A DNA stretch of 64,000 nt from Spirochaetia bacterium (GTDB taxonomy: Bacteria > Spirochaetota > Spirochaetia > SZUA-6 > Bin103). Within the stretch, counting starts at the first letter, position 1. The number at the start of each line of letters is the position of its first letter. The notes under the pieces were generated by a model. That model was given only the letters and a program-made list of their open reading frames with translations, was not told the DNA's origin and did no database searches. The position numbers were made by a program, and so were the translations under genes. The DNA lies in NCBI GenBank assembly GCA_965203055.1, contig OZ241863.1:736001-800000 (forward strand), written 5' to 3'. Of the stretch, positions 47,013 through 64,000 are shown in pieces.

Positions 47013-47849
47013 TCAGGAGGTCAGGTCAGGCGCGCCGGCCGCGGAGGCTGGCGGGCTCACGGCCGCCCGGCGCCAGGCCGCCACCTGGACCGCAATTGCC
47101 TGCCGGGCCTGCGCCAGCGCCTCCGCCGCGGCGCGCCGGTCCGGCGCCGGCGGGTGGACCTGCAGCACCTTGATCCGGTAGTGGACCCGGGCGAGGTTGC
47201 GCAAGGCGCGCAGGCGCGAGATGCCGGTGCCGCCATCCAGCGCCGCCACCACGATCGGCAGCCGCGCCTGCTCGGCGAGGAGCCGCAGGCCGGCGCGATG
47301 GAACCGCCCCAGGCGGCCGTCGCGGGAGCGCGTCCCCTCGGGAAACAACGCCAGGCTGCAGGGAGGAAACCGGGAGTCGGAGCGCGGCCGCCGGTCGAGC
47401 CGGGCCAGCCTGAGCAGGGCGCGCCGCGTACGCTGCTGCGCGCCGCGGCGGTCGATGAGCGCGTGACAGCCGTAGCGCAGGCACTTGGAGAGCGTCGGAA
47501 TGCCGCGCTGCAGCGAGCGCTTGGCCACGAACTTCAGCGGATGGCGGGGGAACGCGGCCACCAGCATGAGGATGTCGGCCAGGCTCTGATGGTTGGTCAC
47601 GAGAATGAAACGCCGCGGCAGGGCCGCGGCGTTGGTGTGGAATGAGTATTGCAGGCCGCTCAGGCGCTGCACCGTGGCCAGCATGCGGCGCGCCTGATTC
47701 GCCATGAAGCGCTCCACCCGCTGGCGGCGCTGCGGCATCCAGCGCAACACCAGGGCGAGGCGCAATTCGTTGAACAGGAAGATGACGGCAACGTAGACCA
47801 GCGCCGCGGCGGCGCCCCCGGGCGGCGACCGCCGGGCGGGCTCCGCCAT
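47013..47849 (-). CDS. Lysophospholipid/1-acylglycerol-3-phosphate acyltransferase (PlsC-like)
   Basis: NHQSLAD, FVAK, FPEGTRS motifs. Confidence 0.9.
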   Translation of the reverse strand: MAEPARRSPPGGAAAALVYVAVIFLFNELRLALVLRWMPQRRQRVERFMANQARRMLATVQRLSGLQYSFHTNAAALPRRFILVTNHQSLADILMLVAAFPRHPLKFVAKRSLQRGIPTLSKCLRYGCHALIDRRGAQQRTRRALLRLARLDRRPRSDSRFPPCSLALFPEGTRSRDGRLGRFHRAGLRLLAEQARLPIVVAALDGGTGISRLRALRNLARVHYRIKVLQVHPPAPDRRAAAEALAQARQAIAVQVAAWRRAAVSPPASAAGAPDLTS

Positions 47850-48694
47850 CAGCCGGCGGACCGGGCGGCGCGGCCGAACAGACCGGCCATCTGCGCGGCG
47901 CCGATCACCCGGACGCCGCGGCGCCGCAGGCGGCCGGCCTGCGCCAACCATTGCGGCAGCACGTAACCCCAATCGGCGAGATAGGCGGCGATGCGCGAGT
48001 CGCCGTTGTCGAGCAGGTGATCGAGCTGGTCCTCGACGAACAGGGCGCGCCCGCCGGGGAGCGCATCGAGCTGCGCGGCGATCAGGTCCAGCTTGCGGGC
48101 GTCGGCGCCGGCCGGGTTGCTGGCGGCGTGGAACACGGCCGCGGCGGGCAGCGGGATGGCGTGGGCGCGCAGGATCTCGCGCACCAGCTCCGCCGCCTTG
48201 GTGGAGATGATGCGCACGTTGGCGAGGTCGTACCCGGTCAGCAGCGCGCGCATGTGGGGATAGATGCGGTTGAGAGCCAACCAGCCGCCGCGGTCGCGCT
48301 GCAGGAAGCGGGCGCGGGTCGCGGCCATGGCGCGCTTCCAGGCGGCGATGCGCGCGGCGCCGAGGGCGCTGCGGCAGGCATCGAACTCCTCCTGCGTGGC
48401 CGGGCCGCGGTACTCCGGCTGCGCCTCCTCGCGCGCCAGGAGGTGCTGAATGACCACGTAGTCCTCGCCGGAGCGGATCAGGGGGCGCAGTTCGCGGAAT
48501 CGGCGCCGGGCGCGCAGCGTGATCTGCGGCGGACCGCGGTCCGCGGCGGCCAGCTCGCGCCACGTGAGCCAGCTACTGGCAAAGCATTCCCGCTCCGAAT
48601 CGCACACCACGCCGTCGAAGTCCAGGAACAGGAGGCAGCGTCCGGCCGCGGCGCCGGCCTCAGCCGCCGGCCAGATGCAGCGTCTCGCCGGCAT
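47849..48694 (-). CDS. HAD-like hydrolase
   Basis: LDFDGVVCDS, ISTK, FVED, LADWGY. Confidence 0.8.
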   Translation of the reverse strand: MPARRCIWPAAEAGAAAGRCLLFLDFDGVVCDSERECFASSWLTWRELAAADRGPPQITLRARRRFRELRPLIRSGEDYVVIQHLLAREEAQPEYRGPATQEEFDACRSALGAARIAAWKRAMAATRARFLQRDRGGWLALNRIYPHMRALLTGYDLANVRIISTKAAELVREILRAHAIPLPAAAVFHAASNPAGADARKLDLIAAQLDALPGGRALFVEDQLDHLLDNGDSRIAAYLADWGYVLPQWLAQAGRLRRRGVRVIGAAQMAGLFGRAARSAG

Positions 48695-49925
48695 GATCCA
48701 CGTACAGGACCCCCTCGGCTTCGCGTCCGCGGTAGTCCTGCGGGTCGATGGCGGCGGGGTCGAGGTAGCCGAGATTGACGCGCTCGCAGACCTCCGCGCT
48801 CAGCCCGGTGGCGAGGGTGACGTTGATGCGCGGCCGCTCCACGCCGTCCCGATAGCTGCCCTCGCCCTTTACCAGCGCGGAGTGGGCCAGCACCCCGCGC
48901 GGAACGTGGCTGAACTGCTGCATGCGGGTCCGGTAGTAGTCGGCGACGTGATACCCCACCTGTTCCAGGTAGCGGCCCCAGGTGCGCGACAGCTCGCGGA
49001 TGTGCGGGCCGTACACGATCAGGGTGCCGCCGTCGGCCACCACCGGCTCCAGCTTGTACATCACCTTGCCGCCGACCCACATCTCGTCGTACATCGCCGG
49101 CGCGTGTCCGAACACGGTGTGGAAGGGCCGCGGCTTGCGCACCACGTGCACCCGCGCCGAATGCGCCGCCGCCGCGGGCCAGGCCGCCTCCGGGGCGCCG
49201 ACGTACAGACCCTCCAGGCCGCCGCCGGAGGTCACTACCATGGCGATCAGGTGGCGCGGCACGTCCACCATCCCGGCGGCGCGTTCCACTACGGCGCGGG
49301 CCGGCGTGTCGCGCCGGCCGATGGTCTTGCGGCAGGTGATCACCGCCGACAGCCAGTGGAAGAAGTCGAGGAACTCCCCGCCCGAGATGCCGGGGAACAG
49401 GTACTTGTGGCCGCCGGAGAAGCCCACGATCTCGTGCGGAAACACCGGTCCCACGATCACGATCAGGTCGTATTCGAAGATCGCGCGGTTGATGGTGACG
49501 TCGATCGCCTCCGCGAACAGGCCGCCGGTAAGGCCGGCGATTTCGCGCTCTTCGAAGCGCCCGATCCGGACCAGCGAGTCGGCCCGGTCCCAGCGGTGGT
49601 TCATGAACCGGGAGTCGGGAAAGTCGCGCTCCCTGGCGGCGGCGGACACGCCGTACAGGTCGAGAATGCCCTGCTCGCTCATCACCGGGTGCGTTCCCAG
49701 GGCGACCATGTAGTCCAGCCGCGCCGCGCGCGATCCGATCACCTCCCGCACCGCGCGCACCAGGAGCGGCAGCGGCGCGCTGCGGGTGGCGTCGGGCGTC
49801 AGCGCGAGCACGCGCCGGTTCTCCACCAAGTGCGCGGGCGTGCCGGCCTCGAGGCGCGCGCACACCGCGGGAAAGTCCCACGTTGCGCCGGTGCCGCGCG
49901 GCTTTGCCGCGGCGAGCTGCGCCAT
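48660..49925 (-). CDS. Lactate racemase (LarA)-family nickel-pincer isomerase
   Basis: PDATR, VALGTH, NH, FPHE.VGFSGGHKYLFPG, DGG motifs; GGGAGGAG RBS before ATG 49925. Confidence 0.85.
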   Translation of the reverse strand: MAQLAAAKPRGTGATWDFPAVCARLEAGTPAHLVENRRVLALTPDATRSAPLPLLVRAVREVIGSRAARLDYMVALGTHPVMSEQGILDLYGVSAAARERDFPDSRFMNHRWDRADSLVRIGRFEEREIAGLTGGLFAEAIDVTINRAIFEYDLIVIVGPVFPHEIVGFSGGHKYLFPGISGGEFLDFFHWLSAVITCRKTIGRRDTPARAVVERAAGMVDVPRHLIAMVVTSGGGLEGLYVGAPEAAWPAAAAHSARVHVVRKPRPFHTVFGHAPAMYDEMWVGGKVMYKLEPVVADGGTLIVYGPHIRELSRTWGRYLEQVGYHVADYYRTRMQQFSHVPRGVLAHSALVKGEGSYRDGVERPRINVTLATGLSAEVCERVNLGYLDPAAIDPQDYRGREAEGVLYVDHAGETLHLAGG

Positions 49926-49942
49926 CGCTCCTCCCGCCTCGC

Positions 49943-50857
49943 TCAGCCGGTCCGGGCGCCGGCCGGCGCGGTCCACGGCGGCTCTTCCGGCAGCAGCCGC
50001 TCGAACTCCCGCACCCGCTCGGCCTGGTACGCGCCGGCGTAGGCGCCGGCGAAGAACCGCTCCAACGCCTCGTCCTGCAGCCGCTGCCACGACTCCTCTT
50101 CCGCGCCCGGCGCGATGGGAAAGAACAGCGCCGCCACCGCCTGCGCCGCGCGCCGGTCGCCGGGCGCGTCGCCCACCATCAGGAGGTGGCCGGGGGGGTA
50201 CTTGGCGGCGGCCGCCAGCTTCAGGTGTTCGCTCTTGCTGCCCAGCTCCTGCCCGGCTATTGCGCGCACGTAGCGGTCGAGGCGGTGTTCCTCCCACTCC
50301 CGCTGCAGCGCGTCGCCCGGCGTCGCCGATACCACCACCACGTCCGCCCGTTCCTGCAGCCGCCGGAGGACCTGTTCGACCCCAGGGAACGGCGGCACCC
50401 CCTGCACCATGCGCGCAATGGCGGAGTTCACGGCATTGGACCAGTCGAGCACCCGGCGCAGCTCGGCGTCGTTGCTCTCCCGCACCGCCACCACCAGCTC
50501 CGGGTTGGCCAGACTGGAGGCGCGCTCGGTCCACGCCCGCAGGCGGGCCAGGCGCGGCACCTCCACCGCGGCGCGCCGCACCTCGCGGCGTTCCGCCAGC
50601 AGCTCCATCACCTTGAGCAGCGCCGGGAACCGGTTCGCGCCGCGCCACTGGGAGTACAGGTTGACGAACTCGGCGGCTTCGCGCACGTACTTCGAGATCG
50701 GCTGCAGCGCGAAGTGGCGCACGATCTCGGGGATGAAGCACTCCTTGTGCTTCAGCTCCATGCTGGGGAAGGCGCAGCCGTCGGAATCGATGCCCACGAA
50801 GAAGGAATGGTTCGGCTGCAGGTCACGCAGCGCTCTGTCATCGGTGCCGTTACTCAT
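49943..50857 (-). CDS. HAD-family hydrolase
   Basis: GIDSDGC motif I, VVSAT, GQE.GSK, MVGDAPGD. Confidence 0.85.
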   Translation of the reverse strand: MSNGTDDRALRDLQPNHSFFVGIDSDGCAFPSMELKHKECFIPEIVRHFALQPISKYVREAAEFVNLYSQWRGANRFPALLKVMELLAERREVRRAAVEVPRLARLRAWTERASSLANPELVVAVRESNDAELRRVLDWSNAVNSAIARMVQGVPPFPGVEQVLRRLQERADVVVVSATPGDALQREWEEHRLDRYVRAIAGQELGSKSEHLKLAAAAKYPPGHLLMVGDAPGDRRAAQAVAALFFPIAPGAEEESWQRLQDEALERFFAGAYAGAYQAERVREFERLLPEEPPWTAPAGARTG

Positions 50858-50876
50858 GGTCCGCTCGCAGAGTAGC

Positions 50877-51695
50877 TCATACGTTGTGGATCAGGTAGCC
50901 GCCGTCGATCGGAATGGTGACGCCGGTGATGAAGCCGGCCGCCTGCGCGCTGGCCAGGAACAGGGCGGCGCCGGTCATCTCGCCGGCGGCGGCGAAGCGC
51001 CCGAACGGGGTGTGGTCGATGATCTGCCGCCCGCGCTCGGTGAGCTCGCCGGTGGCGTCGTCCTCGATCAGCAGGCGGCGGTTCTGGTTGGCGACGATGA
51101 AGCCGGGCGCAATGGCGTTGACGCGGATGCCGTGCGGAGCGTACTCCTTGGCGCAGGCCATGGTCAGGTTGACCACGCCGGCCTTGGCCGCGCCATAGGC
51201 CCATACCCCCGACAGCGGCACGTACGAGGCCATGGAAGCGACGTTGATGATGCAGCCGCCGCCGCCGCGCGCGATCCAGAACGCCGCGGTGCGCTTGGTA
51301 GGCACCACCAGGCCGGCGACCAGATTGAGGCGCAGCACCTCCTCGAACAGGGCCACGTCCAGGTCGTTGAACGGCCCCTTGCCGCGGTTGCCGCCGACCC
51401 CGTTGACCAGCACCGTGGGCGCGCCGAGCGCCGCCGCGGTGGCCTCCAGGGCCGCGTCCACCGCGGCTTCGTCGCCGGCGTCGGCCTGCACCCCGCACAG
51501 CCGCTGCCGCCGTTCGGGCACCGCGCCAAGCTGCTCCAGGGCCGCGTCCACCGTCTCCTGCCGGCGGCTCCAGACCGCCACCTTGGCGCCGGCCGCGAGA
51601 AACGCCTCCGCCAGGGCCAGGGCGATGGTGCCGCCGCCGCCGGCCAGCGCCACCACCTGGCCGCGCAGCCCGAAGGTGCGCTCGACGTAGCTCAC
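50877..51695 (-). CDS. Short-chain dehydrogenase, D-mannonate oxidoreductase (UxuB)-like
   Basis: GGGGTI, YGAAK, GIRVNAIAPGF..NQNR.LL...LTERG..IIDHTPFGRF; GTG start. Confidence 0.8.
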   Translation of the reverse strand: MSYVERTFGLRGQVVALAGGGGTIALALAEAFLAAGAKVAVWSRRQETVDAALEQLGAVPERRQRLCGVQADAGDEAAVDAALEATAAALGAPTVLVNGVGGNRGKGPFNDLDVALFEEVLRLNLVAGLVVPTKRTAAFWIARGGGGCIINVASMASYVPLSGVWAYGAAKAGVVNLTMACAKEYAPHGIRVNAIAPGFIVANQNRRLLIEDDATGELTERGRQIIDHTPFGRFAAAGEMTGAALFLASAQAAGFITGVTIPIDGGYLIHNV

Positions 51696-51703
51696 GGCGC
51701 GAC

Positions 51704-53152
51704 TCACTTCAGTTGGCGCGCGGGGGCCTGCGCGCCGGCCAGCCAGTCGGTGTGGAACACCCCCGGGCGGTCCACCCGGCGGTAGGTATGAGCGCCGAAG
51801 TAGTCGCGCTGCGCCTGGATCAGGTTGGCCGGCAGGGTCGCCGAGCGGTAGCTGTCGTAGTAGCTCAACGCCGAGGCGAAGGCCGGCACCGGGATGCCGA
51901 TGGTGGCCGCGGTGGCCACCACCTCGCGCCACTCCCGCTGGCCGTCGTGGACGATCGCCGCGAAGTAGGGGTCCAGCAGCAGGTTGGCCAGCGCCGGGTC
52001 ACGGTCGTAGGCGTCCTTGATCTTGCCGAGAAACTTGGCGCGGATGATGCATCCGCCGCGCCAGATCATGGCGATGGCGCCGTAATCGAGCGCCCAGCCG
52101 TGCTCCTGCGCCGCGGCCCGCATCAGTCCGAAGCCTTGGGCGTAGGAGCAGATCTTCGAGGCGTAGAGCGCTTTGCGCAGCGCTTCCAGGAACTGCTTGG
52201 GGTCGCCGGAGAAGGCGGCCGCGGGACCGCGCAACTGCGCCGCGGCCGCGGTCCGCTCCTGCTTGAGGGCGGAGACGAAGCGCGCGAACACCGCCTCGGC
52301 GATGGTCGGCGCCGGCACCCCCAGGTCCAGAGCGGACTGACTGGTCCACTTGCCGGTGCCCTTCTGGCCCGCCTGGTCGAGAATCACCTCCACCAGCGGC
52401 GCCCCGCTCTCGGGGTCGATCTTGGTGAGGATGTCGGCGGTGATCTCGATCAGGTAGGAGTCGAGCTCGCCGCGGTTCCACTCGGCGAAGGTTGCCTGCA
52501 TTTCGCCGTGGCTCATGCCGAGCGCGAGCTTCATGCAGGCGTACGCTTCGCTGATGAGCTGCATGTCGCCGTACTCGATGCCGTTGTGGATCATCTTCAC
52601 GTAGTGGCCGGCGCCGTCGGCGCCGATATAGGCGCAGCAGGGCTCCTCTTCCACCTTGGCGGCGATGGCGCTGAGGATCGGCGCCACGGCCGCGTAGGCG
52701 CCGCGGTCGCCGCCGGGCATGATGCTCGGCCCGCGCAGCGCGCCCTCTTCCCCGCCGGACACGCCGGTGCCGATATAGCGCAACTGCGCCGCGGCGGCGC
52801 GCTGCGCGCGGCGGATGGTGTCGACGAAGTAGGAGTTGCCGCCGTCGATCAGAATGTCGCCCGGCTCCAGGTGCGGCTCCAGGTCGGCGATGACCTGGTC
52901 CACCGCGCTGCCGGCCTGCACCATCAGCAGGATCTTGCGGGGCCGGACGAGGGACGCCGCCAGCTCCGCCAGCGAAGCCGCCGGCAGCAGCCGCCGTTCG
53001 GCGCCGGCGCCCCGGACGAATTCGTCGAGGGTGCTCCGGGTACGATTGTAGACGGCCACGGTATAACCGCGGCTTTCGATGTTGAGGGCCAGATTCTGAC
53101 CCATCACCGCCATGCCGATGACGCCGATGTCTGCCTGCGAGGGTGTGCTCAT
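51704..53152 (-). CDS. gnd: NADP-dependent 6-phosphogluconate dehydrogenase
   Basis: [48 protein letters not shown]. Confidence 0.98.
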
Positions 53153-53300
53153 GTTTTTCAAAGGATGGGCGGCGGGCGCGCGCGCCGGGCCGGACCCGCC
53201 GCCATTCTGGCCTGATCGCGCCGCGCGCGCAACCCAACGTGCGCCGCCGGGCGGCGGACGCGCTGCGCGACTCCATCGACGCCGGCGCGTGGCGCTTTCG

Positions 53301-53955
53301 TGGGGAGACGGAGTTGCGCCCGATCGTGCCGATGGTGTTCTATCTGGGAAGCGGACGCTGGCGCTACGCGACCGAGTTCTCGGAGTTGTTCCCGCGTGAG
53401 GTGCGCGGGTGGCGGTGGCTGCCGAGCTTCGAGCACGTGCTGATCGACCATTCGGAGACGGAGCCGGAAGGGGTGCGGGGCAAGTTGAAGGGGAGGCTGG
53501 CGCAGCTGATGATGCTGGCGGTATACCGGGCGGCGGTGGCGTGGCCGGCGCTGGAGCGAGCGTTGCCGCTGCTGGCGAAACTGGCGCGCCGCGGGGGTGG
53601 GGAGCAGAGCATGTTCGTGTGGTACGTGCTGGCGACGCAAAGGGAACCGTTGCGGGGGCGATTTGCCAAGGAACTGCAGCGGCAGATACCGGGACCGGAG
53701 GGAGACATCATGAATTACGTGGAGGAGATCAAGCAACAAGGCCGCCTGGAAGGCCGGCAGGAGGGGCGCCTGGAAGGCCGGCAGGAGGGTGAGCTTAAGG
53801 GCCGGCAGGAGGGCCGGCTGGAGACCATCGAAGAGTTCCTGCGGGCGGGAATCGGGTGGCCGGTGATCCTATCCGCCACCGGCATCGACGAGCACACCTA
53901 CCGGACCCTCAAACGCGACTCCGCCAACGGCGCGGAGCAGGCCGCGCCCCGCTAG
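53301..53955 (+). pseudogene. Rpn-family nuclease copy A1, 5'-truncated (nuclease domain absent)
   Basis: Near-identical to 57707-58433; homology starts abruptly at about 53293-53301; HD, ESDLL and EHQ motifs missing. Confidence 0.85.
53710..53955 (+). CDS. Internal-start small protein (RpnS-like), 81 aa, 7 GRxE-type repeats
   Basis: GGAGGGAG at 53697-53704 followed by in-frame ATG 53710. Confidence 0.65.
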   Translation: MNYVEEIKQQGRLEGRQEGRLEGRQEGELKGRQEGRLETIEEFLRAGIGWPVILSATGIDEHTYRTLKRDSANGAEQAAPR

Positions 53956-53959
53956 CTTC

Positions 53960-54094
53960 CTGCCATCCGGACGCGCGTAGTTGGCGGAGGACGTTGGCGC
54001 TGCCGAGCGACGTGCTGAGAGGCATACAACTGGTTTGTGACGACAATTCGAGCCTGGTCTGATGGGCGGCCACTGCATCGGCGTCGATCCGTAC
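53960..54094 (+). repeat. Decayed, internally deleted duplicate of the 5' part of the nucleotide-sugar dehydrogenase region
   Basis: About 53960-54050 matches 58437-58536; 54047-54094 matches 59288-59335; joined at a shared TCGA. Confidence 0.85.
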
Positions 54095-54131
54095 CAGGCA
54101 GGCCGGTTTCGAACCGCGGCGGCGTTGCGAG

Positions 54132-54315
54132 TTAGCGGGTTGTGATCTGGGCTAGTTCGGTGGCGAGTTTGTCGTACCAGGTTGCGCTTCGGAAGGACTC
54201 GCCGCGTTGCCGCGCTCCGGTACACAGCGCGCGGTAGAGCTGCGGGTCGCCGATCACGCGCCGTATCGCCTCCCGAACCGCGGCCGCACCTGCCGGATTT
54301 CGGCGCTGGCGCCAT
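54132..54315 (-). pseudogene. Glycosyltransferase (GT-B/GT4-like) C-terminal remnant
   Basis: AAVREAIRRVIGDPQLYRALCTGARQRGESF resembles a GT4 C-terminal helix; the rest of the gene is absent. Confidence 0.5.
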
Positions 54316-54325
54316 CTGGCGTCCG

Positions 54326-56257
54326 TCAGCTTACGCGGTGCTCGTCCAGCCATGCCTGAAACATCAGTATGTCCCATATGCAGGCGTCCCACCGGCGGAT
54401 TCCAGCGAGGTGTTCCATCCACCGCATTCTGATCGGTTCCGGCTCAAAGTACCCTTCATCGCGCAGCCGGCTTTCGGCCAACAGCGATTCCGCCCACTCT
54501 CTGAGCGGTCCTCTCAGCCACGACTCCAGCGGAACTCCGAACCCCATCTTGGGCCGCTCGACGAGCCTCCTGGGTACATGCCGATCGAGCACCTGCCGCA
54601 ATATCCACTTGCTCTCGGCCCCTCGAATCTTCATCGCCAACGGCAACCGCCAGGCGAACTCCACCACTCGATGATCGAGAAACGGCGCGCGCGTTTCCAG
54701 GCTCACCCCCATTGCCGCCCGATCCACCTTGACCAGAATGTCATCCGGCAGGTACGTCAACGCGTCGATCCCCATCAGCCGACTCTGGAGGTCAGGAGCG
54801 TCAGGCCATGCCCGATGATCCGACAGGCAGGTTCGAGGCTCTGACGTATGCCGTACGATGGAAGCAGGAGACTTCCAGTGCGACACCAACTGAACGTAGA
54901 GCTGCTCCGGCTCCCGAAAGTCCAGCAGATCAGACACCTTGCAAGCCCGGTCATAAGTCCGCCCCCTTCCCCAATGCGATGGAACCGCGGCAATGGCACC
55001 CCGGTATAATCGCCTCATCCAGTTCGGGACCGGACCCAGGATCCGCCAAAGGGTACGGGTTCTGAAGTATCGTGTATAGCCGCCGAACAGCTCGTCACCG
55101 CCGTCTCCCGACAGAGCGACGGTCACGTGCCGGCGGGTCATGGCGGAGACCAATGAAGTGGGAATCTGCGAAGGGTCCGAAAACGGTTCGTCGTACAGTA
55201 CCGGCAATCCGGGAATGACATCCAACGCATCCTGCGGGGTAACGTACAACTCCGTATGTTCGGTTCCGAGATGCTCCGCGACTTCCTTGGCATGCGCTGC
55301 CTCGTCGTAGCGCGGATCGTCAAATCCGATGGCGAACGTCCGCACCGGTCGCGACGAGCAGGCCTGCATCAACGCTACGATCGTCGATGAATCGATGCCC
55401 CCCGAAAGAAACGCTCCCAAAGGGACATCAGCTACGACCTGAGACGCCACCGCCTGCCGCAACACCTCGTGCAGCGCCTCCACGGCCTCGCCGGCGTCGC
55501 CCTCGAACGGTCGCTCCCGTCCTTCTTCGACAATCTCCCGCAACGACCAGTAGCGTTCTTCTTCCGGCAATTCGCCTGCCGGTGAAGACCCGTTTCCGAA
55601 CGCGAGCTTGACAAACGCGCCCGGCGCCAGTTTTCGAATGCCCCGATAGATGGACCAAGGACCCGGAATGTAGTTGTGCCGCAGGTACAACGCCAGCGCT
55701 TCCCGGTCGATCACCCCGGCAAATGAAGGATGACATGCCAGGGCCTTGAGCTCGGAGGCGAACATGAACACGCCATTCTGCCACCCGAAGTACAGCGGCT
55801 TCTCACCGAGCCGATCCCGCGCCAGGTAGAGCGCCCGTTCCTGCCGGTCCCACACTGCGAACGCGAACATGCCTGTCGCATACCGCAGCGCCGCCGCCAA
55901 TCCGAAGTGCTCGATCGCCGCCAACAGAGACTCCGTATCGGATGCGCCCTGCCAGGCAACCATCGGACCGGATCGAGAATCCAACCGGTGTCTCAGCTCC
56001 TGGTGATTGTATATTTCCCCGTTGAACGAAATGACGTAGCGGCCCGAGTGGGAACACATCGGCTGGTGCCCGGCGGCAGACAGATCGATCACCGCCAGAC
56101 GCCGATGGGCCAACGCGACGCCGGCGGTTCCGTCGAGCCATACGTCCGCGTCGTCCGGTCCGCGATGCGCCAGCACCTCCGCCATCTTCGACGCTATCGG
56201 CCTCGCCAGCGCTCCCGGAAAGCCGCCGCGCTGAACGAACCCTGCTACTCCGCACAT
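54326..56257 (-). CDS. asnB: Asparagine synthase (glutamine-hydrolysing)-like amidotransferase of a polysaccharide locus
   Basis: N-terminal MCG, HRGPD, FNGEIYN, RDRLGEKPLY, LSGGIDSS, LSGDGGDELFGGY, KVDRA. Confidence 0.93.
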   Translation of the reverse strand: MCGVAGFVQRGGFPGALARPIASKMAEVLAHRGPDDADVWLDGTAGVALAHRRLAVIDLSAAGHQPMCSHSGRYVISFNGEIYNHQELRHRLDSRSGPMVAWQGASDTESLLAAIEHFGLAAALRYATGMFAFAVWDRQERALYLARDRLGEKPLYFGWQNGVFMFASELKALACHPSFAGVIDREALALYLRHNYIPGPWSIYRGIRKLAPGAFVKLAFGNGSSPAGELPEEERYWSLREIVEEGRERPFEGDAGEAVEALHEVLRQAVASQVVADVPLGAFLSGGIDSSTIVALMQACSSRPVRTFAIGFDDPRYDEAAHAKEVAEHLGTEHTELYVTPQDALDVIPGLPVLYDEPFSDPSQIPTSLVSAMTRRHVTVALSGDGGDELFGGYTRYFRTRTLWRILGPVPNWMRRLYRGAIAAVPSHWGRGRTYDRACKVSDLLDFREPEQLYVQLVSHWKSPASIVRHTSEPRTCLSDHRAWPDAPDLQSRLMGIDALTYLPDDILVKVDRAAMGVSLETRAPFLDHRVVEFAWRLPLAMKIRGAESKWILRQVLDRHVPRRLVERPKMGFGVPLESWLRGPLREWAESLLAESRLRDEGYFEPEPIRMRWMEHLAGIRRWDACIWDILMFQAWLDEHRVS

Positions 56258-56339
56258 TCTGGCAAATATGCTAACAGTCGAGTCGCGCAATCACGATATG
56301 AACACCGCAGCGGCAACGAGCCGACGCGCAGAGCGACGC

Positions 56340-57145
56340 TCATTGGACGCCGGCATTGCGTACAAAAACGAATTGATGATTCCCGGTACCCGCAGTGGGA
56401 TTCACCGTTCGTGCGATGAAACCTCTCTCGTAAAAGAACTGAACTACTTCGTCCGACTTTGCATACTCATACGGATAGCCGCCGATCCAGTCCAGTATGT
56501 CGGTCACTACGTGCATTCCTCTCTTGCGCTGGTATGCGGCAAACAAGTTGGTCCGTTGCCGAATGGAAGAGATTGCTCTTCTCCCCATATAATACGGAAC
56601 CAGTACCATGGACGTGGCCACTCTCGTAGCGACGTTGAAGTTGTAAAATCTCTTGATCTTTGCCCAGATTCTTGACCGCAATCCGCAATCGTTGTAGATT
56701 GCAAGGCACAAGTGTCCTCCACCTTTCGTCAACTTCGCTACATTGTCCATTGCGTTCCACATGGCGCCGGTGTGATGCAGAACTCCCCATGCGTATACGA
56801 TGTCGTAAGTGTTCAATGACTTCAAAAACTCCTTGTCCAACACAGAACCCTGTAGAACGGCCCAGTTCGAATCGCCGGGGTAATACCGATCCCTAAGTTC
56901 CTTGGCGCATGAAACGGCGTCCGGATCGTAGTCGAATGAGGTCACTTCGCACCCGGCTGAACGCGCGCATAATGAAAGAGTCCACTGCCGCAGCCGACGT
57001 CAAGAAAGCGCGTGCCGGCACTGATGGCGCCATCAGCTTCGGAGATCATGGCAAGCAGTGATTGCTTGGCAATCTTGATGTCCGTATCGGACATGGTGGA
57101 CAAGTACTTCTTCCAGTTTCTTCCGAATCCGAACCGTGACTTCAT
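56340..57145 (-). pseudogene. Class I SAM-dependent methyltransferase split by a 1-nt frameshift at about 56975
   Basis: MKSRFGFGRNW...FLDVGCGSGLF in one frame continues as SLCARSAGCEVTSFDYD...WGVLHHTG in another; adding one T to the T3 run joins them. Confidence 0.8.
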
Positions 57146-57359
57146 TCTCTGCAGGCTGAGGCAGCCCGGACGGCAGTTTAAGGGTAATCGTTTCGTTGAT
57201 CTACCCCTTCTTGTCGCTCGTCGCTCGTTCTGCCAAAATGGGCGGCGTAACGGGGTGGGGATGCGGAGTATTACCGTTAACTTGTTATATTCAATAGAAG
57301 TACGCCAAAGCTTGGCAGATGCGCCGCGGCCCGCGGGCAGCCGGGAACTGGTCTGAAGC

Positions 57360-58433
<1,074 letters not shown>

Positions 58434-58459
58434 CCGCCTGCCATCCGGGACGCGCGTAG

Positions 58460-59839
58460 TTGGCGGAGGACGTTGGCGCTGACGAGCGAGGTGCCGGGAG
58501 GCATGCAACTACAACTGGTTTTGTGACGACAATCGAATCACTTCGAAGCAGGGAGGCGCACGTCGGCGTAGTTGGGCTTGGCTACGTCGGCAGACCGCTG
58601 GCGGCGGCGTTGCATCGTCACTTCTCGGTCTACGGCTTCGACACGGACGAACGCCTCATCCGGGCGCTTCGAGCGGGAGCGGGCGGAACTCACGCGGACG
58701 AGACCCGCCCGCTGCGTGAGATGAGGAATTGTCTCACTTCCGACCCCGCGGTACTCAGACGGTGCTCCTTCATCGTCATAACCGTACCGACTCCGATTAC
58801 CGCCGACCGAGTCCCCGATCTGGAGCCCTTGAGAGGCGCTGCCCGGACCATCGGACGGAATCTCAGGACCGGCTGCGTGGTGGTGGTGGAATCGACTGTC
58901 TATCCGGGCGTGACCGAGGAGGTGGTCGGCCCGGTCATTGCTCGCGAAAGCGGTCTCAAGGCCGGTACGGGGTTTCATCTTGGTTACTCGCCGGAGCGCA
59001 TCAACCCCGGAGACGACACACACACGCTGGAGCAGTTGGTGAAGGTGATCGCAAGTAACGAGCGGCCGGTGTCAGAGCTCATGCGCGCCGTCTACGGAGC
59101 GGTTACCGATGCCGGGGTGTACCAGGCGGCGAGTATCCGGACGGCCGAACTTGCCAAGGTACTCGAGAATACTCAGCGCGATCTCAACATTGCATTGATG
59201 AACGAGCTGGCCATGATCTGTGATCGGCTGGCAGTCGACACCAGGGATGTCATCAGGACAGCGGCCACGAAATGGAACTTTGCCCGCTTCGAGCCGGGTC
59301 TGGTGGGCGGCCACTGCATCGGCGTCGATCCGTACTACCTTACCCACGTAGCCGAGCAGGCGGGGCATACGCCGCAGGTCATACTTGCCGGGAGGCAGGT
59401 CAACGATGCAATGGGACAATACGTGGCCGAACGTACCATTGCCTTGATTCGGTCAGCCCGCGGAAGCGTCGAGCGCGCGAACATTCTGGTATTGGGCTTT
59501 ACCTTCAAGGAGAATGTTCCGGACGTGCGCAATACTCGGGTGGCCGACATCATCCACGCTCTGAGGGAGCATGGAGCGCAGTGTTCGATCTTCGACCCCA
59601 AGGTCGACCCTGATGAGATCGGCGGCAATTACGGGTTCCGGGTAGTGGACGACGTGACCCGAAAGGCGCCATATGATGCCGTAATAGTTGCGGTACGGCA
59701 TGACGTGTTCAGGTCGATGTTTTCGCTGGACGCAATCAAGTCGATGTTGGTTCCCGATCATCCGGTTCTCATTGACGTGAAGGCATTCTACGACAAAGAG
59801 TCCGCGCATACCGCAGGGTTACTATATTGGCGACTATAA
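58460..59839 (+). CDS. UDP-N-acetylhexosamine/nucleotide-sugar dehydrogenase (WbpO/TviB/WecC family); true start may be GTG 58523
   Basis: GLGYVG, VPTP, ESTVYPG, YSPERINPG, GGHCIGVDPYYL, GFTFKEN.PD.RN. Confidence 0.93.
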   Translation: MAEDVGADERGAGRHATTTGFVTTIESLRSREAHVGVVGLGYVGRPLAAALHRHFSVYGFDTDERLIRALRAGAGGTHADETRPLREMRNCLTSDPAVLRRCSFIVITVPTPITADRVPDLEPLRGAARTIGRNLRTGCVVVVESTVYPGVTEEVVGPVIARESGLKAGTGFHLGYSPERINPGDDTHTLEQLVKVIASNERPVSELMRAVYGAVTDAGVYQAASIRTAELAKVLENTQRDLNIALMNELAMICDRLAVDTRDVIRTAATKWNFARFEPGLVGGHCIGVDPYYLTHVAEQAGHTPQVILAGRQVNDAMGQYVAERTIALIRSARGSVERANILVLGFTFKENVPDVRNTRVADIIHALREHGAQCSIFDPKVDPDEIGGNYGFRVVDDVTRKAPYDAVIVAVRHDVFRSMFSLDAIKSMLVPDHPVLIDVKAFYDKESAHTAGLLYWRL

Positions 59840-59845
59840 TGTTGA

Positions 59846-60367
59846 CGCCACGCCCCCGAGTTTGTGCTGCTGGTGGACCAGTCGGAGACGGGGGTGGAAG
59901 CGGTGCCGGGCGAAACGCTGGGGCGGGCAGCGCAGCTGGCGCTGATGGCGGCGGCGCGCCGCGAGGTGAGGGAGGCGCTGGCACGGGCGGTGCGGCTGAT
60001 GGGAGAGTTGCACCGTGCGGGACAGGGCGAACGGTTCGGGCCGGTAGTGTTGTACGTGACCCGCACGCAGGATAACGAGACGTTGCGGGAGTTCTTCGCG
60101 GCGCTGCGGAGGGAAGTACCGGGACCAGGAGGGGATATGAGAACGTATGGGGAGCAGTTGATCCAGGAGGGCCGGCAGGAAGGCCTCCAGGAAGGCGTGC
60201 TGAAGGGCCGGCAGGAAGGCCGGCAGGAGGGCCAAGTGGCCACGATCGAGAGCTTTCTGCGCGCCGGCGTCGGGTGGTCGACTATCAAGCAGGCTACCGG
60301 CATCGACCAGGAGGCGTTCGAGTTGCTCCGCCGACAGACCCACCCGGCAGATCGGGAACTGACTTAG
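59846..60367 (+). pseudogene. Rpn copy B1: upstream flank fused to the C-terminal half by an internal deletion
   Basis: 59846-59870 matches the 5' flank of the B copies (61812-61842); from about 59867 it matches 62353 onward. Confidence 0.85.
60137..60367 (+). CDS. Internal-start small protein (RpnS-like), 76 aa, 5 repeats
   Basis: AGGAGGGG at 60127-60134, ATG 60137. Confidence 0.6.
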   Translation: MRTYGEQLIQEGRQEGLQEGVLKGRQEGRQEGQVATIESFLRAGVGWSTIKQATGIDQEAFELLRRQTHPADRELT

Positions 60368-60529
60368 TTCAGCCGCACCGGTCGTTCAGCAACGGGCCGG
60401 TGGCCCTGCGGGGTAGCTCAAGCAACCAACGCCGCCGACGGCCAGCGTTGCCCGGAGGCACGCAGGTGCTTCGCCTGCACGGTATGGCGCCACGCCACCG
60501 AGTTTATGTTATGCTGCGCGGCGCCACGC
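60368..60529 (+). repeat. Conserved ~160-bp spacer of the Rpn B tandem unit, with an extended -10-like TGnTATGCT
   Basis: Recurs at 61688-61854 and partially at 62910-63010; TGTTATGCT at 60507-60515. Confidence 0.8.
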
Positions 60530-61687
60530 ATGACGCGCGACCTGCACCAGCCGCATGACCGCCTGTTTCGCAAGGTGTTCTCCGAGCCGGCCGAAGCGGC
60601 CGGCTTGTTGCGCGTCTACGTGCCGGGGTGGCTCGCCGAAACGCTGGACTGGTCCAGCTTGACGCTGGTGCCCGCCAGCTACGTGGACGACGAACTGCAG
60701 GCCAGCGAGTCCGACCTGCTGTTCGCGGTGGAGCAGCGTCCGGGCGGGGCGGAGTCGGGAGAGGAGCGGCGTTCGCTGCGGCTCTATCTGCTGTTCGAGC
60801 ACCAATCGACGCCGGACCGGATGATGAGCTTCCGGCTGCTGAAGTACTGCTGCCGCATCTGGGATGATTTCTTGCGCTCTGACGAAGGGAAGGAGACGCC
60901 GGAGTTGCCGCCGATCGTGCCGCTGGTGTTCTATCAGGGCGAGTCGAGCTGGCGCCACGCGACCGAGTTCAGCGAGTTGTTTGCGGAATCGGTCAGGGGG
61001 TGGCCGTGGACGCCGAAGTTCAAGCACCTGTTGGTGGACCAGTCGGAGACGAGGGTGGAAGCGGTGCCGGGCGAAACGCTGGGCCGGGCAGCGCAGCTTG
61101 CGCTGATGGCGGCGGCGCGCCGCGAGGTGCGTGCGGCGCTGGCGCGGGAGGCGCTGGCGCGGACGGTGCGGCTGATGGGAGAGTTGCACCGTGCGGGACA
61201 GGGAGAACGGATCGGGCCGGTGGTGTTGTACGTGATCGGCACGCAGGATAATGAGACGTTGCGGGAGTTTGACGCGGCACTGCGGCGGGAAGTACCGGGA
61301 CCAGGAGGGGATATGATGACGTATGGGGAGCAGCTGATCCAGGAGGGCCGGCAGGAAGGTCTCCAGGAAGGCCTCCAGGAAGGCCGGCAGCAAGGCGTGC
61401 TGAAGGGCCTCCGGGAGGGCGTGCTGAAGGGCCGGCAGGAAGGCCGAGTGGAAGGCCGGCAGGAGGGCCGAGTGGAAGGCCGGCAGGAGGGCCGAGTGGA
61501 GGGCCGGCACGAGGGTCGGCACGAGGGCCGGCAGGAAGGCCGGCAGGAAGGCCAGATAGCCACGATCGAGAGCTTTCTGCGCGCCGGCGTCGGGTGGGCG
61601 ACTATCAAGCAGGCTACCGGCATCGACCAGGAGGCGTTCGAGTTGCTTCGCCGGCAGACCCACCCGGCAGATCGGGAACTGACTTAG
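60530..61687 (+). CDS. Rpn/YhgA-family nuclease, copy B2 (intact)
   Basis: QPHDRLFR, ESDLLF, YLLFEHQSTPD, PPIVPLVFY.G; 17 tetrapeptide repeats. Confidence 0.92.
   Translation: MTRDLHQPHDRLFRKVFSEPAEAAGLLRVYVPGWLAETLDWSSLTLVPASYVDDELQASESDLLFAVEQRPGGAESGEERRSLRLYLLFEHQSTPDRMMSFRLLKYCCRIWDDFLRSDEGKETPELPPIVPLVFYQGESSWRHATEFSELFAESVRGWPWTPKFKHLLVDQSETRVEAVPGETLGRAAQLALMAAARREVRAALAREALARTVRLMGELHRAGQGERIGPVVLYVIGTQDNETLREFDAALRREVPGPGGDMMTYGEQLIQEGRQEGLQEGLQEGRQQGVLKGLREGVLKGRQEGRVEGRQEGRVEGRQEGRVEGRHEGRHEGRQEGRQEGQIATIESFLRAGVGWATIKQATGIDQEAFELLRRQTHPADRELT
61313..61687 (+). CDS. Nested internal-start small protein (RpnS-like), 124 aa, 17 repeats
   Basis: AGGAGGGG at 61303-61310, then ATG ATG at 61313/61316, in frame. 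Confidence 0.65.
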   Translation: MMTYGEQLIQEGRQEGLQEGLQEGRQQGVLKGLREGVLKGRQEGRVEGRQEGRVEGRQEGRVEGRHEGRHEGRQEGRQEGQIATIESFLRAGVGWATIKQATGIDQEAFELLRRQTHPADRELT

Positions 61688-61854
61688 TTCAGCCGCACCG
61701 GTCATTCAGCATGGGCCTGTAGGCTTCGCGGGGTAGCTCAAGCAACCAACGCCGCCGGCGGGCCAAGCGTTGCCCGGGAGGCACAGCAGGTGCTTCGCCT
61801 GCACGGTATGGCGCCACGCCCCCGAGTTTTATGCTATGCTGCGCGGCGCCACGC

Positions 61855-62622
61855 ATGACGCGCGACCTGCACCAGCCGCATGACCGTCTGTTTCGCAAGG
61901 TGTTCTCCGAGCCGGCCGAAGCGGCCGGCTTGTTGCGCGTCTACGTGCCGGGGTGGCTCGCCGAAACGCTGGACTGGTCCAGCCTGACGCTGATGCCCGC
62001 CAGCTACGTGGACGACGAACTGCGGGCCAGCGAGTCCGACCTGCTGTTCGCGGTGGAGCAGCGTCCGGGGGCGGCGGAGCCGGGGGAGGAGCGGCGTTCG
62101 TTGCGGCTCTACCTGCTGTTTGAGCACCAATCGACGCCGGACCGGATGATGAGCTTCCGGCTGCTGAAGTACTGCTGCGGCATCTGGGATGATTTCTTGC
62201 GCTCTGACGAAGGGAAGGAGACGCCGGACTTGCCGCCGATCGTGCCGCTGGTGTTCTATCAAGGTGAGTCGAGCTGGCGCCATGCGACGGAGTTCAGCGA
62301 GTTGTTTGCGGAATCGGTCAGGCGGTGGCCGTGGACGCCGCAGTTCAAGCACCTGCTGGTGGACCAGTCGGAGACGGGGGTGGAAGCGGTGCCGGGCGAA
62401 ACGCTGGGCCGGGCAGCGCAGCTGGCGCTGATGGCGGCGGCGCGCCGCGAGGTGAGGGAGGCGCTGGCACGGGCGGTGCGGCTGATGGGAGAGTTGCACC
62501 GTGCGGGACAGGGCGAACGGTTCGGGCCGGTAGTGTTGTACGTGACACGCAGGATAACGAGACGTTGCGGGAGTTCTTCGCGGCGCTGCGGAGGGAAGTA
62601 CCGGGACCAGGAGGGGATATGA
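61855..62622 (+). CDS. Rpn copy B3 N-terminal nuclease ORF (4-bp deletion at about 62546 shifts the frame; stop overlaps the small-ORF start)
   Basis: All catalytic-type motifs present; TACGTGACACGCAG here versus TACGTGACCCGCACGCAG in B1. Confidence 0.75.
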   Translation: MTRDLHQPHDRLFRKVFSEPAEAAGLLRVYVPGWLAETLDWSSLTLMPASYVDDELRASESDLLFAVEQRPGAAEPGEERRSLRLYLLFEHQSTPDRMMSFRLLKYCCGIWDDFLRSDEGKETPDLPPIVPLVFYQGESSWRHATEFSELFAESVRRWPWTPQFKHLLVDQSETGVEAVPGETLGRAAQLALMAAARREVREALARAVRLMGELHRAGQGERFGPVVLYVTRRITRRCGSSSRRCGGKYRDQEGI

Positions 62623-62909
62623 AAACGTATGGGGAGCAGCTGATCCAGGAGGGCCGGCAGGAAGGCCTGCAGGAAGGCCTGCTGAAGGGCCTCCACGAAG
62701 GCGTGCTGAAAGGCCGGCAGGAGGGCCGAGTGGAGGGCCGAGTGGAAGGCCGGCACGAGGGCCGGCAGGAAGGCCAGGTAGCCACGATCGAGAGCTTTCT
62801 GCGCGCCGGCGTCGGGTGGGCGACTATCAAGCAGGCTACCGGCATCGACCAGGAGGCGTTCGAGTTGCTTCGCCGGCAGACCCACCCGGCAGATCGGGAA
62901 CTGACTTAG
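62619..62909 (+). CDS. Small protein (RpnS-like), 96 aa, 10 repeats, now a separate ORF
   Basis: AGGAGGGG RBS; ATG 62619 overlaps TGA 62620-62622. Confidence 0.7.
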   Translation: MKTYGEQLIQEGRQEGLQEGLLKGLHEGVLKGRQEGRVEGRVEGRHEGRQEGQVATIESFLRAGVGWATIKQATGIDQEAFELLRRQTHPADRELT

Positions 62910-63173
62910 TTCCAGCCGCACCGATCGTCAGCACGGGCCTGTAGCCCGGCGGGGTAGCTCAAGCAACCCACGCCGCCGGCGGCCAGCGTTGCCCGGGAGG
63001 CACTGCCTGCACGGGGTTGGCGTCCGGCTTCGCGGCGCGGCGCGTGACCGCCGAGTGGATGGAGTTCTACAAGGAGAGGTATGCCCCACTCGGCGTTGGG
63101 TCGGCGGGCGCCTGCGGAGGCCTGCTGCAACGTGGCGGGTTACCGCCACTTGATTTGCAGAGGGAGGGATGGG

Positions 63174-63201
63174 TTGACAACCGGCGGATACCCCTTAACC
63201 T
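63174..63201 (+). promoter_or_regulatory. Possible promoter upstream of the flippase
   Basis: TTGACA (63174-79), 16 bp spacer, TAACCT (63196-63201); preceded by the GTGGCGG-GTTA-CCGCCAC hairpin. Confidence 0.35.
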
Positions 63202-63237
63202 ACCCCTTGTACCGTCTGACCGACCGGGACCACCTCA

Positions 63238-63405
63238 GACGACGTGACCCGAAAGGCGCCACATGGCGCCGTTGGACGTTTCCGCTGGACGCAAGCAAGT
63301 CGATTCCGGTTCCCGATCATCCGGTTCTCATCTGACGTGAAAGCACTCTACGACAAAGAGTTCGCGCGTGCCGCAGGGCTACGATATTGGCGACGGTAAT
63401 GTTGA
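63238..63405 (+). repeat. Decayed duplicate of the 3' end of the nucleotide-sugar dehydrogenase
   Basis: Matches 59648-59845 with substitutions and a ~30-bp deletion; both copies end in TAATGTTGA. Confidence 0.9.
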
Positions 63406-64000
63406 GCCGCATCGCCGGCGCTATCCGAGGATCACATATATCTTCTTCCGAACGGTCCGTCGGATCCAGGATTTCCGCGGCGGCGCTTGCCATTGGTGGG
63501 TTCACTGTTGGCGTCAAGGTGGTGGCCCTGGGCTCGACGTTACTCATTGCCTCCTTCTTTGGTACCGGAGACGATCTGGAGGCATTTCTCATTGCGTTCC
63601 TGTTGCCGTCGATGGGAATGTCCGTGATATGCGGCGCGTTCCGGTCAGCTTTGATACCAACATACGTCCAGGTGCGAGAGCAGTACGGAAGTCTCCGCGC
63701 TCAGTCTCTGTTCTCGAGAATCATGTTCGTTGCCAGTGGCATACTCCTGCTTTCCGTGGGATGCTTCGCAGTTCTGGTACCGTACCTGTTGCCGCTACTC
63801 GCATCCGGCTTCCCGCCAACCAAGTTGGCACTGGCAATACAACTTTCCTACTTATTGTTACCGGTGATCGTGGTCAAGGGTATCGCGACGATATATGGCG
63901 CGGCGCTCAACGCCGAGGAACGTTTCTCCCTGGTCGCTGCGGCGCCGGCGCTGATACCAGCCTCCACCATTCTATTCATGCTGTTGTGGCCGGTGCCTGC
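63399..64000 (+). CDS. MurJ/MviN-type (MOP) lipid-linked oligosaccharide flippase, partial (runs off the window)
   Basis: Manual translation from ATG 63399: ...IASFFGTGDDLEAFLIAFLLP...SALIPTY...LASGF...AALNAEERF; open to the window end. Confidence 0.85.
   Translation, partial: MLSRIAGAIRGSHISSSERSVGSRISAAALAIGGFTVGVKVVALGSTLLIASFFGTGDDLEAFLIAFLLPSMGMSVICGAFRSALIPTYVQVREQYGSLRAQSLFSRIMFVASGILLLSVGCFAVLVPYLLPLLASGFPPTKLALAIQLSYLLLPVIVVKGIATIYGAALNAEERFSLVAAAPALIPASTILFMLLWPVP

Follow-up and report, generated by a model that had tools for sequence, protein, structure and literature searches.

The rpn genes encode toxin-antitoxin systems in which a small protein, RpnS, is made from an internal start within the gene and binds and blocks the nuclease of the full-length product, RpnL (Zhong et al. 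2023, PNAS, PMC10400941). The C-terminal domain shared by the two products carries four-amino-acid (4-aa) repeats that start 8-20 residues after the internal methionine and vary in number between strains, and Leptospira interrogans is among the species with such variation; a single additional 4-aa repeat prevents the neutralisation of RpnC, and no cross-protection is seen between RpnA-S and RpnB-S (PMC10400941). RpnS also occurs as a separate gene (RpnSs), namely ypaA (rpnESs) downstream of rpnE and, in some strains, rpnCSs downstream of rpnC, and rpn arrays form by tandem direct duplication (PMC10400941), a tandem array from Parabacteroides being mentioned in the legend of supplementary (SI) Fig. 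S1B of that paper. So far, the internal start has been shown experimentally only in Escherichia coli and with one C. difficile gene (PMC10400941), and our literature search found no later mechanistic paper on Rpn. Here we analyse five rpn-related copies in a 64,000-nucleotide (nt) stretch of a 'Spirochaetia bacterium' genome (contig OZ241863.1, positions 736,001 to 800,000 of the forward strand, hereafter the window). Three of the copies are truncated or frameshifted upstream of the internal start, and all five keep an open small reading frame downstream of it. The array is a further example of the arrangement already described and not a new kind of system, and the locus is probably a rearranged rpn cluster of the published RpnL/RpnS gene-within-gene type.

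The five copies lie on the + strand between positions 53282 and 62909 of the window, as determined by tblastn and by profile hidden Markov models (HMMs) of the N and C parts of Rpn built from 22 relatives; the same searches found no sixth copy in the 64 kb. They belong to two subtypes, A and B, which are 54% identical, A1 grouping with A2, and B1 with B2 and B3, in the small-protein and copy comparisons. A2 (57360..58433, 357 aa) and B2 (60506..61687, 393 aa from the first ATG, or 385 aa in the database gene call P0001, for which we assume a start at 60530) are intact. A1 (53282..53955, with homology from 53282 or 53293) is 5'-truncated, B1 (59855..60367) has its nuclease core deleted, and B3 (61831..62909) is frameshifted, as seen from its alignment and ORF (open reading frame) frames. 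Both intact genes exceed the cut-offs of Pfam PF04754 (21 bits) and of TIGR01784 from NCBIfam (52.1 bits): the PF04754 matches have E-values of 9.9e-38 (130.2 bits) for A2 and 9.3e-40 (136.8 bits) for B2, and those to TIGR01784 score 62.8 and 88.6 bits, respectively. The N-terminal piece of B3 matches PF04754 equally (E = 5e-40, 137.7 bits), A1 matches it partially, over profile positions 104-178 only (E = 9.5e-07, 29 bits), and B1 has no match, as expected for a copy without that part. B1 is recognised through the C-terminal positions 215-268 of TIGR01784 (E = 3.3e-05) and positions 160-257 of our own N profile (E = 2.5e-36).

The catalytic motifs PHD, SD and EHQ are found in A2, B2 and B3 and are missing in A1 and B1. 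Among 22 aligned relatives, H17, D18, E98, H99 and Q100 are invariant and D70 is nearly so. These motifs are the equivalents of RpnA residues D11, D63, E82 and Q84, with a numbering that was checked on E. coli RpnE, and Kingston (2017) gives these four residues as required for activity. On the strength of these profile and motif matches, the assignment of the copies to Rpn is sound. With an N-terminal PF04754 nuclease of PD-(D/E)XK type and its D, D and E-x-Q motifs, A2 and B2 resemble E. coli RpnA-E and the plasmid protein RpnP2; PADLOC v2.0 had no family matching A2 or B2. The first-pass annotation of this DNA had described five copies in two subtypes, with A2 and B2 intact, B3 frameshifted and five small ORFs open, and had placed them in the Rpn family; our searches agree with it on each of these points.

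In each copy, an in-frame internal ATG (53710, 58116, 60137, 61313 and 62619) is preceded by GGAGGGAGACATC in subtype A or AGGAGGGGAT in subtype B, and all five copies combine a GGAGG-type Shine-Dalgarno sequence (GGAGGGAG in A1), the ATG and an open small ORF. The predicted RpnS-like products have 81 aa in A1 (53710..53955), 105 aa in A2 (58116..58433), 76 aa in B1 (60137..60367), 124 aa in B2 (61313..61687) and 96 aa in B3 (62619..62909), all on the + strand. The source annotation contains the 96-aa ORF of B3 (P0184) and a 157-aa B1 protein (P0125) as genes. GGAGG is also present at likely gene starts elsewhere in the genome, for instance at 3669 and 20244, and no motif comparable to the internal Shine-Dalgarno sequence was found at the full-length starts of A2, B2 and B3. 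A scan for sigma-70 promoters from 53000 to 63500 returned 3 matches for 1.5 expected, none inside an rpn copy, and is uninformative for an internal promoter in this lineage.

To see how far this start is conserved, we used 77 related loci from one genome-contig scan, drawn from the best 80 of 486 confirmed matches (595 pattern matches). They come mostly from metagenome-assembled genomes (MAGs) named 'Spirochaetia bacterium', the others being from Binatia, Thermodesulfobacteriota, Vicinamibacterales and Entotheonella. The best related locus is 72-75% identical, and the window's own genome therefore lies outside the scanned contig collection. Most of the 100 copy junctions in the window and the 77 loci, judged by eye, carry a GGAGG-type motif before the ATG, and the peptide encoded at the junction varies (PGPGGD/M, GQGGE/IM, PGGGEL/M and AAGGELM, for example). 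The 66 unique contexts from 85 full-length copies comprise 53 with GGAGG, 8 with GGAG, 1 with GAGG and 4 with none, which gives a Shine-Dalgarno-like motif in 62 of 66; one further full-length copy has GTG in place of ATG. Moreover, GGA makes up 163 of 233 glycine codons (70%) within 18 nt upstream of the internal start, against 329 of 2039 (16%) elsewhere in the same 84 genes, whereas 33 of 47 unique contexts of long-form starts have no Shine-Dalgarno-like motif. Conservation thus acts at the nucleotide level, and the comparison strongly suggests that an internal ribosome-binding site, from which translation is predicted, is maintained in the relatives. The site matches the published RpnS start (PMC10400941), and the two earlier claims concerned, that the internal Shine-Dalgarno sequence and ATG are conserved and that the full-length starts have no comparable ribosome-binding site, are borne out.

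The lesions of the three damaged copies differ in kind. Homology of A1 to A2 begins at about A2 residue 111-114, which means that approximately residues 1-110, including PHD, SD and EHQ, are gone and that the helical middle region and the small-ORF region are retained. In B1, the alignment joins ∼19 nt of B-type 5' leader to approximately B2 codon 176; the copy therefore carries an internal deletion and not a simple 5' cut. The first-pass annotation had already described A1 and B1 as lacking the nuclease half. B3 lost 4 nt after position 62545, 74 nt before the internal ATG, and its long frame runs only to a TGA (62620-62622) that overlaps the small-ORF ATG at 62619 (ATGA), leaving an N-terminal piece of 263 aa with intact catalytic motifs and no C domain. 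A homopolymer sequencing error was considered for this frameshift and rejected, since the deletion sits in non-repetitive sequence, although it may be an assembly error. We likewise rejected the possibility that the copies are insertion sequences, as no terminal inverted repeats or target duplications were found at the copy ends; Zhong et al. (2023) reached the same view of rpn copies (PMC10400941).

This end state has a described counterpart. The stand-alone ypaA, which we checked in E. coli K-12 (L078 17817-18002), lies 12 nt beyond the rpnE stop; the copied segment begins 14 nt before the internal ATG and carries one repeat more than RpnE-S. Like ypaA, A1 and B1 are nuclease-less small-protein genes with their own Shine-Dalgarno sequence, each accompanied by a complete rpn gene of its subtype from which it differs in repeat number. 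The damaged copies differ from ypaA in that A1 and B1 retain 139 and 91 codons of the middle region, that B1 precedes B2 and A1 precedes A2, the latter two being 4.4 kb apart and separated by two unrelated genes, and that B3 reaches the same state by frameshift and not by deletion. The head-to-tail order of B1, B2 and B3 is that of published tandem rpn arrays, from which this one differs by its truncated and frameshifted members and its mosaicism (see later in the text). Since stand-alone RpnSs and tandem rpn arrays are already published (PMC10400941), the arrangement is not new; the words 'truncat' and 'pseudogene' are absent from the main text of that paper, and a search of two of its supplementary texts, figures apart, for 'truncat' and 'partial', though not for 'pseudogene', found neither. 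What the locus adds is modest, namely that the orphan copies retain longer middle regions and that a recombination switch could be mapped to the internal start. RefSeq marks ypaA as a pseudogene although its tagged product was detected, and small rpn-derived genes are thus annotated inconsistently. In classical type II systems, orphan antitoxins and anti-addiction modules are also known, in which the toxin gene is lost or inactive and an antitoxin of the cognate type persists. In contrast, the antitoxin would lie here within the toxin's own reading frame, where only a lesion preceding the internal start can uncouple toxin and antitoxin.

Similar copies recur in the relatives. When each related locus was searched with its own full-length copy, 11 nuclease-less copies reaching the normal 3' end were found in 8 loci (two each in L005, L030 and L038, one each in L033, L055, L062, L068 and L070). 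Their breakpoints lie at query residues 120-222, the catalytic motifs being lost in all of them, and in every one of the 11 the Shine-Dalgarno sequence and the ATG are intact and the small ORF, of 68-88 aa, is open. One more partial copy (L054, query residues 23-327), missing no more than the first 22 residues, was left out of the count. Copies that have lost the nuclease and kept an intact small ORF arise repeatedly in rpn arrays. Among short database homologues of B2, we classified the best 120 of 254 at E ≤ 1e-8: 63 were nuclease-less with a complete C part, 37 began at the N-terminus and had no C part, 10 were internal N pieces and 10 were of other types. A hand tally restricted to contigs of 10 kb or more (56 proteins, of which two belong to the window) gave 34, 9, 6 and 7 in the same order, or 34 C-retaining against 15 C-lacking short forms, which is a tendency and not a clean count, as contig ends and frameshift-split genes feed both classes. 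In two other assemblies, B1 has orthologues (P0121 and P0122) with a residual N part identical to that of B1 and other repeat numbers.

In L038, an N-terminal half (6451-6873, query residues 1-141) and a nuclease-less copy (8932-9564, query residues 120-310) stand 2 kb apart with an overlap of ∼20 residues, and they may represent a single copy interrupted by an insertion or a pair of partial duplicates. Rpn is highly expanded in the high-GC (guanine plus cytosine) Spirochaetia-type MAGs and in Binatia, with at least six loci in single genomes, as on OZ241907.1 (L001-L004, L013 and L070). L042 contains, at 1135-9863 and upstream of the seeded copy, a five-copy array of a divergent Rpn subtype of ∼350-420 aa; its members match N-profile positions 7-195, four of the five also have a short C match, and two shorter N-only fragments lie in between.

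Each small ORF carries a tract of 12-nt repeats on the + strand, with 7.0 copies in A1 (53740..53823), 13.1 in A2 (58144..58300), 5.8 in B1 (60164..60233), ∼18 in B2 (216 nt, 61338..61553) and 10.8 in B3 (62646..62775). The encoded 4-aa repeats are of G-R-Q-E type and begin at residue 11-12 of each small ORF, which fits the published distance from the internal methionine. Repeat number differs between every orphan and its intact neighbour. The same holds for the relatives, in which the small-ORF length of all 11 truncated copies differs from that of every full-length copy in their own locus; full-length copies (in L054, a nearly full one) also differ mutually in small-ORF length in 8 of 8 related loci that have two, and those of the window behave alike. 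Aligned identity between the small protein of an orphan and that of the intact copy of its subtype is 92% for B and 45-61%, with gaps, for A.

An AlphaFold2 model of the B1 small protein, made from a 29-sequence alignment, has a predicted local distance difference test score (pLDDT) of 75 and predicts helices at residues 4-42, 47-54, 58-68 and 70-75. The small ORFs of the window resemble E. coli RpnS in an in-frame internal Shine-Dalgarno sequence and ATG giving, by sequence prediction here, a small C-terminal protein, in a hypervariable 12-nt repeat tract ∼11 residues after the internal methionine, as far as the B1 model goes in a predicted long first helix followed by short ones, and in the presence of several paralogues per genome with different repeat numbers. 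However, the host is an uncultured high-GC (∼0.68) Spirochaetia-type genome, the repeat tracts are much longer (up to ∼18 units), the small proteins have 76-124 aa as against 56 aa for RpnE-S and 46 residues for the deposited RpnA-S chain, and the C domain has no detectable sequence match to RpnA-S or to DUF4351. A Foldseek search of the PDB with the full-length B2 model, which is multi-domain with a low-confidence repeat helix, gave no match at E ≤ 0.001; helices 191-262 of this model correspond to the helical region that the truncated relatives keep. A sequence search of the PDB with B2 returned only low-complexity repeat matches (E ≥ 0.06).

In the account that we consider probable, A2 and B2 would each encode two products: a long PD-(D/E)XK nuclease, RpnL, whose start has hardly any or no Shine-Dalgarno sequence, and a small C-terminal RpnS, read from the strong internal Shine-Dalgarno sequence and ATG. 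By homology, RpnS would pair, by means of the long helix of 4-aa repeats, with the identical domain in the RpnL of the same gene and so restrain the nuclease. A1, B1 and B3 would be products of duplication (segmental or tandem), deletion and recombination among the array members, and would correspond to the stand-alone RpnSs of E. coli (ypaA), with 91-139 codons of non-catalytic middle region in addition. Two likely reasons could account for the preservation of their small ORFs: lesions in a toxin half would be harmless, whereas lesions in the shared C part of a live copy would be counter-selected, and the small ORF itself may be under purifying selection. Because each small ORF has its own repeat number, it would most likely act on its own (lost) partner only and would not serve as a spare antitoxin for A2 or B2. 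Extrapolating from the E. coli work, the small proteins would be translated, the long ones would be toxic unless neutralised, repeat number would set specificity, and the pairs may act in phage defence.

Several observations weigh against this account. Upstream sequence makes up 0.70 (A) and 0.68 (B) of the gene length, and if three lesions were placed at random, the chance that all of them would miss the small ORF is ∼0.33; the preserved-ORF pattern is for this reason not significant in the window alone, and its weight comes only from the related loci. There, 11 further fragments have no complete small ORF (L013, two each in L023, L030 and L033, and one each in L034, L036, L038 and L065). Seven of them are ≤54 residues long, five of these being 5' ends (query residues 1-37, 1-38, 2-28, 11-37 and 1-54) and the others covering residues 129-154 and 283-304; the C-incomplete fragments also include the N-terminal half in L038 and an internally deleted copy in L030 with the C part lost, and two are broken within the small ORF (L065, which is also frameshifted, and L033, residues 214-271). 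The earlier emphasis on the preservation of every small ORF is overstated, as it relies on the three lesions of the window and as these fragments also occur. The dN/dS comparison suggested in the first-pass annotation was run as the ratio of nonsynonymous to synonymous differences per site (pN/pS). Pooled over 14 copy pairs, it is 0.44 in the residual N parts (134.25 nonsynonymous and 104.75 synonymous differences) and 0.26 in the small ORFs (86 and 106; Fisher odds ratio 1.57, p = 0.020), a modest contrast in which the pairs are non-independent, the branch of the intact partner is included and the repeat alignment has an influence. For the pairs of the window the contrast is small (0.34 against 0.23 for A1, 0.32 against 0.22 for B1 and 0.21 against 0.13 for B3). 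The residual N parts are open in frame, over 139 codons in A1 and 91 in B1, and longer N-truncated proteins might be made from them. A Pfam search of the five small ORFs at E-values up to 10 found no DUF4351 (PF14261), and gave only Yae1_N, an artefact of the G-x-x-x repeats, and noise, although the DUF4351 annotation of RpnSs applies only in some species (PMC10400941) and is not a strict requirement. The small-ORF C domain had no sequence match in the PDB, RpnA-S included. A Foldseek search of the PDB with the B1 model ranked RpnA-S of E. coli (7th0) first of 5, with a template modelling (TM) score of 0.67 on the target and a root-mean-square deviation of 2.0 over 42 columns, but at E = 3.4 and a probability of 0.38 this match is not significant. 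Finally, the rule of repeat-number specificity rests on one E. coli protein, RpnC.

The foremost alternative, although we judge it unlikely, is plain decay, according to which A1, B1 and B3 are functionless debris and their small ORFs are open as the lesions are young and the ORFs short. The pattern in the window would then arise by chance about once in three times. The 2.8% divergence between A1 and A2 in the residual N part and a pS of 0.018 between B1 and B3 indicate that some events are recent, and the B3 frameshift looks strain-specific, given an intact relative with a B3-type N-terminus (P0002). N-only and internally deleted fragments are common in the relatives, the 12-nt repeats can vary without breaking the frame, so that repeat variation needs no selection, and ypaA itself is a pseudogene in RefSeq. 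However, decay does not readily explain that all 11 truncated relatives keep the Shine-Dalgarno sequence, the ATG and the ORF, some of them being only 64-73% identical to their neighbour (L030 13495-13980; L038 8932-9564 and 10996-11287). Nor does it explain that the five frameshifts observed among full and partial copies, in B3, L033 (query residues 41-46 and 208-210), L038 (235-239) and L062 (246-248), are all upstream of the internal start. The lower pN/pS of the small ORFs, the excess of C-retaining short forms and the detection of a tagged ypaA product (PMC10400941) point in the same direction. Taken together, the results favour a real retention of the small ORF, and they are also compatible with survivorship alone, in which losses of the toxin half are tolerated.

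We find it improbable that the products of A1 and B1 include N-truncated long forms, that is, proteins of the middle and C parts, possibly dominant-negative, made from upstream in-frame starts such as the GTG at 59864 in B1. The open residual N parts would permit such proteins, and their pN/pS of 0.32-0.34 is not close to 1. Moreover, B1 begins 24 nt after the stop of a dehydrogenase gene on the same strand, with no terminator-like site found between, the source gene caller predicted the 157-aa protein, and the helical region (profile positions 203/222-257) is at least partly retained in all 11 truncated relatives. However, no Shine-Dalgarno-like motif precedes the upstream starts, and in 4 of the 11 relatives (L030 13777, L033, L038 11066 and L062) the residual N part is missing or no longer in frame and the small ORF is intact.

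The copies have also recombined with one another. B1, B2 and B3 form head-to-tail units of ∼1.32 kb (gene plus a 138-nt spacer) with no terminal inverted repeats. In a three-way alignment of these copies (59867-60367, 61028-61687 and 62353-62909), we counted only the sites at which either B1 or B2 alone deviates. Between the B1 junction and the internal ATG, B3 shares the state of B1 at 17 of 18 such sites, whereas between the repeat start and the stop it shares that of B2 at 8 of 10 (Fisher p = 1.2e-4 for the switch). In subtype A, A1 and A2 differ by 2.8% (12/428) upstream of the internal ATG and by 9.4% (21/224) over the small-ORF tail and 3' flank (p = 5e-4). An intact 385-aa protein, 97% identical to B2 and encoded on a 65-kb contig of a related assembly (P0002), combines a B3-type N part with a B2-type C part. 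The same contig encodes an A-type protein (P0056), and it seems to come from a close strain with a differently recombined array. The site switch in B3, the divergence switch between A1 and A2 and the P0002 chimera therefore indicate that N and C modules have separate histories. The recombination switch at the internal start or repeat boundary, present in both subtypes, is new here.

This mosaic may represent concerted evolution of the usual kind, in which the repeats serve as a hot spot of recombination. A more specific proposal is that the nuclease-less copies are silent donor cassettes, in which recombination at the boundary of the repeats or internal start would move an entire small-ORF module, tail and repeat number together, into an expressed rpn gene; since the C domain of the toxin and the antitoxin are the same DNA, one donor event would alter both together. 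The two switches and the chimera mildly favour this proposal, which we nevertheless regard as very unlikely. The idea of a toxin with an antitoxin bank, put forward in the first-pass annotation, in which the small ORFs of A1, B1 and B3 would neutralise the intact nuclease of their subtype (A2 or B2) and buffer or tune its toxicity, is in keeping with the position of the orphans by an intact copy of the same subtype, with their small-protein identities, with the intact Shine-Dalgarno sequence and ATG of every orphan and with the regulatory flexibility that a second RpnS copy may add according to Koonin (PMC10400984), but it appears very unlikely, because repeat numbers never match (7.0 against 13.1 in A; 5.8 and 10.8 against ∼18 in B), 11 of 11 truncated relatives differ in small-ORF length from the full copies of their locus, the A1 and A2 small-ORF tails are 9.8% apart as against 2.8% in the residual N parts, and in E. 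coli one extra repeat ended the neutralisation of RpnC and RpnA-S and RpnB-S did not cross-protect (PMC10400941).

The array is embedded in a polysaccharide locus, as the first-pass annotation had proposed in calling it a surface-glycan locus. Upstream of A1 lies gnd (51704-53161, - strand), and downstream of it a dehydrogenase remnant (53969..54094, + strand) consisting of the 5' end and an internal piece of 48 nt with 96% identity. An asparagine-synthase-type amidotransferase of XrtA/PEP-CTERM-like type and a methyltransferase (54326-56945, - strand) occupy the space between the direct repeats A1 and A2, with a GC content of 0.60-0.62, whereas the five 2-kb bins before them (44001-54000) range from 0.69 to 0.72. 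The intact TviB-like nucleotide-sugar dehydrogenase (58460..59839, + strand) stands between A2 and B1, and the B array is followed by a 3'-end remnant of the dehydrogenase (63238..63405, + strand, ∼88% identical) and then by a MurJ-like flippase. The remnant after A1 indicates that a module of A plus dehydrogenase was duplicated, and together the duplicated module and the remnants place the rpn copies at the seams of earlier rearrangements of this locus, whether by segmental duplication or by replacement. A1 and A2 are 97% identical over ∼420 nt, and recombination between them could delete the amidotransferase and methyltransferase cassette. No transfer RNA gene was found in the window, which thus has no tRNA-linked island signature.

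Elsewhere in the window, a coiled-coil protein of the SpiroCoCo / LA_3659 family (35581-36798, + strand) exceeds the cut-offs of both NCBIfam domain models. As a lineage marker it supports a spirochaete origin of this high-GC genome, in line with the 'Spirochaetia bacterium' MAGs among the relatives and with the spirochaete-like genome assumed in the first-pass annotation. A type II DNA methyltransferase-like ORF (42763-44247, + strand; PADLOC MTase_II, E = 1.6e-66) overlaps the 3' end of a histidine-kinase ORF (41999-43342), and no restriction partner was identified nearby.

If the locus is indeed an rpn cluster of the published type, the RpnL/RpnS design would extend to uncultured Spirochaetia-type bacteria of high GC content and, among their neighbours, to Binatia, Thermodesulfobacteriota, Vicinamibacterales and Entotheonella, and conservation at the level of codon choice provides good comparative support for the internal start in these groups. 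The array bears on two questions left by Zhong et al. and Koonin, namely how repeat numbers diversify and what role the extra small-protein genes have. Its members exchange C-terminal modules at the repeat boundary, and, if the nuclease-less copies were donor cassettes, such exchange would allow the matched specificity of toxin and antitoxin to be switched, with a logic like that of antigenic variation from silent cassettes.

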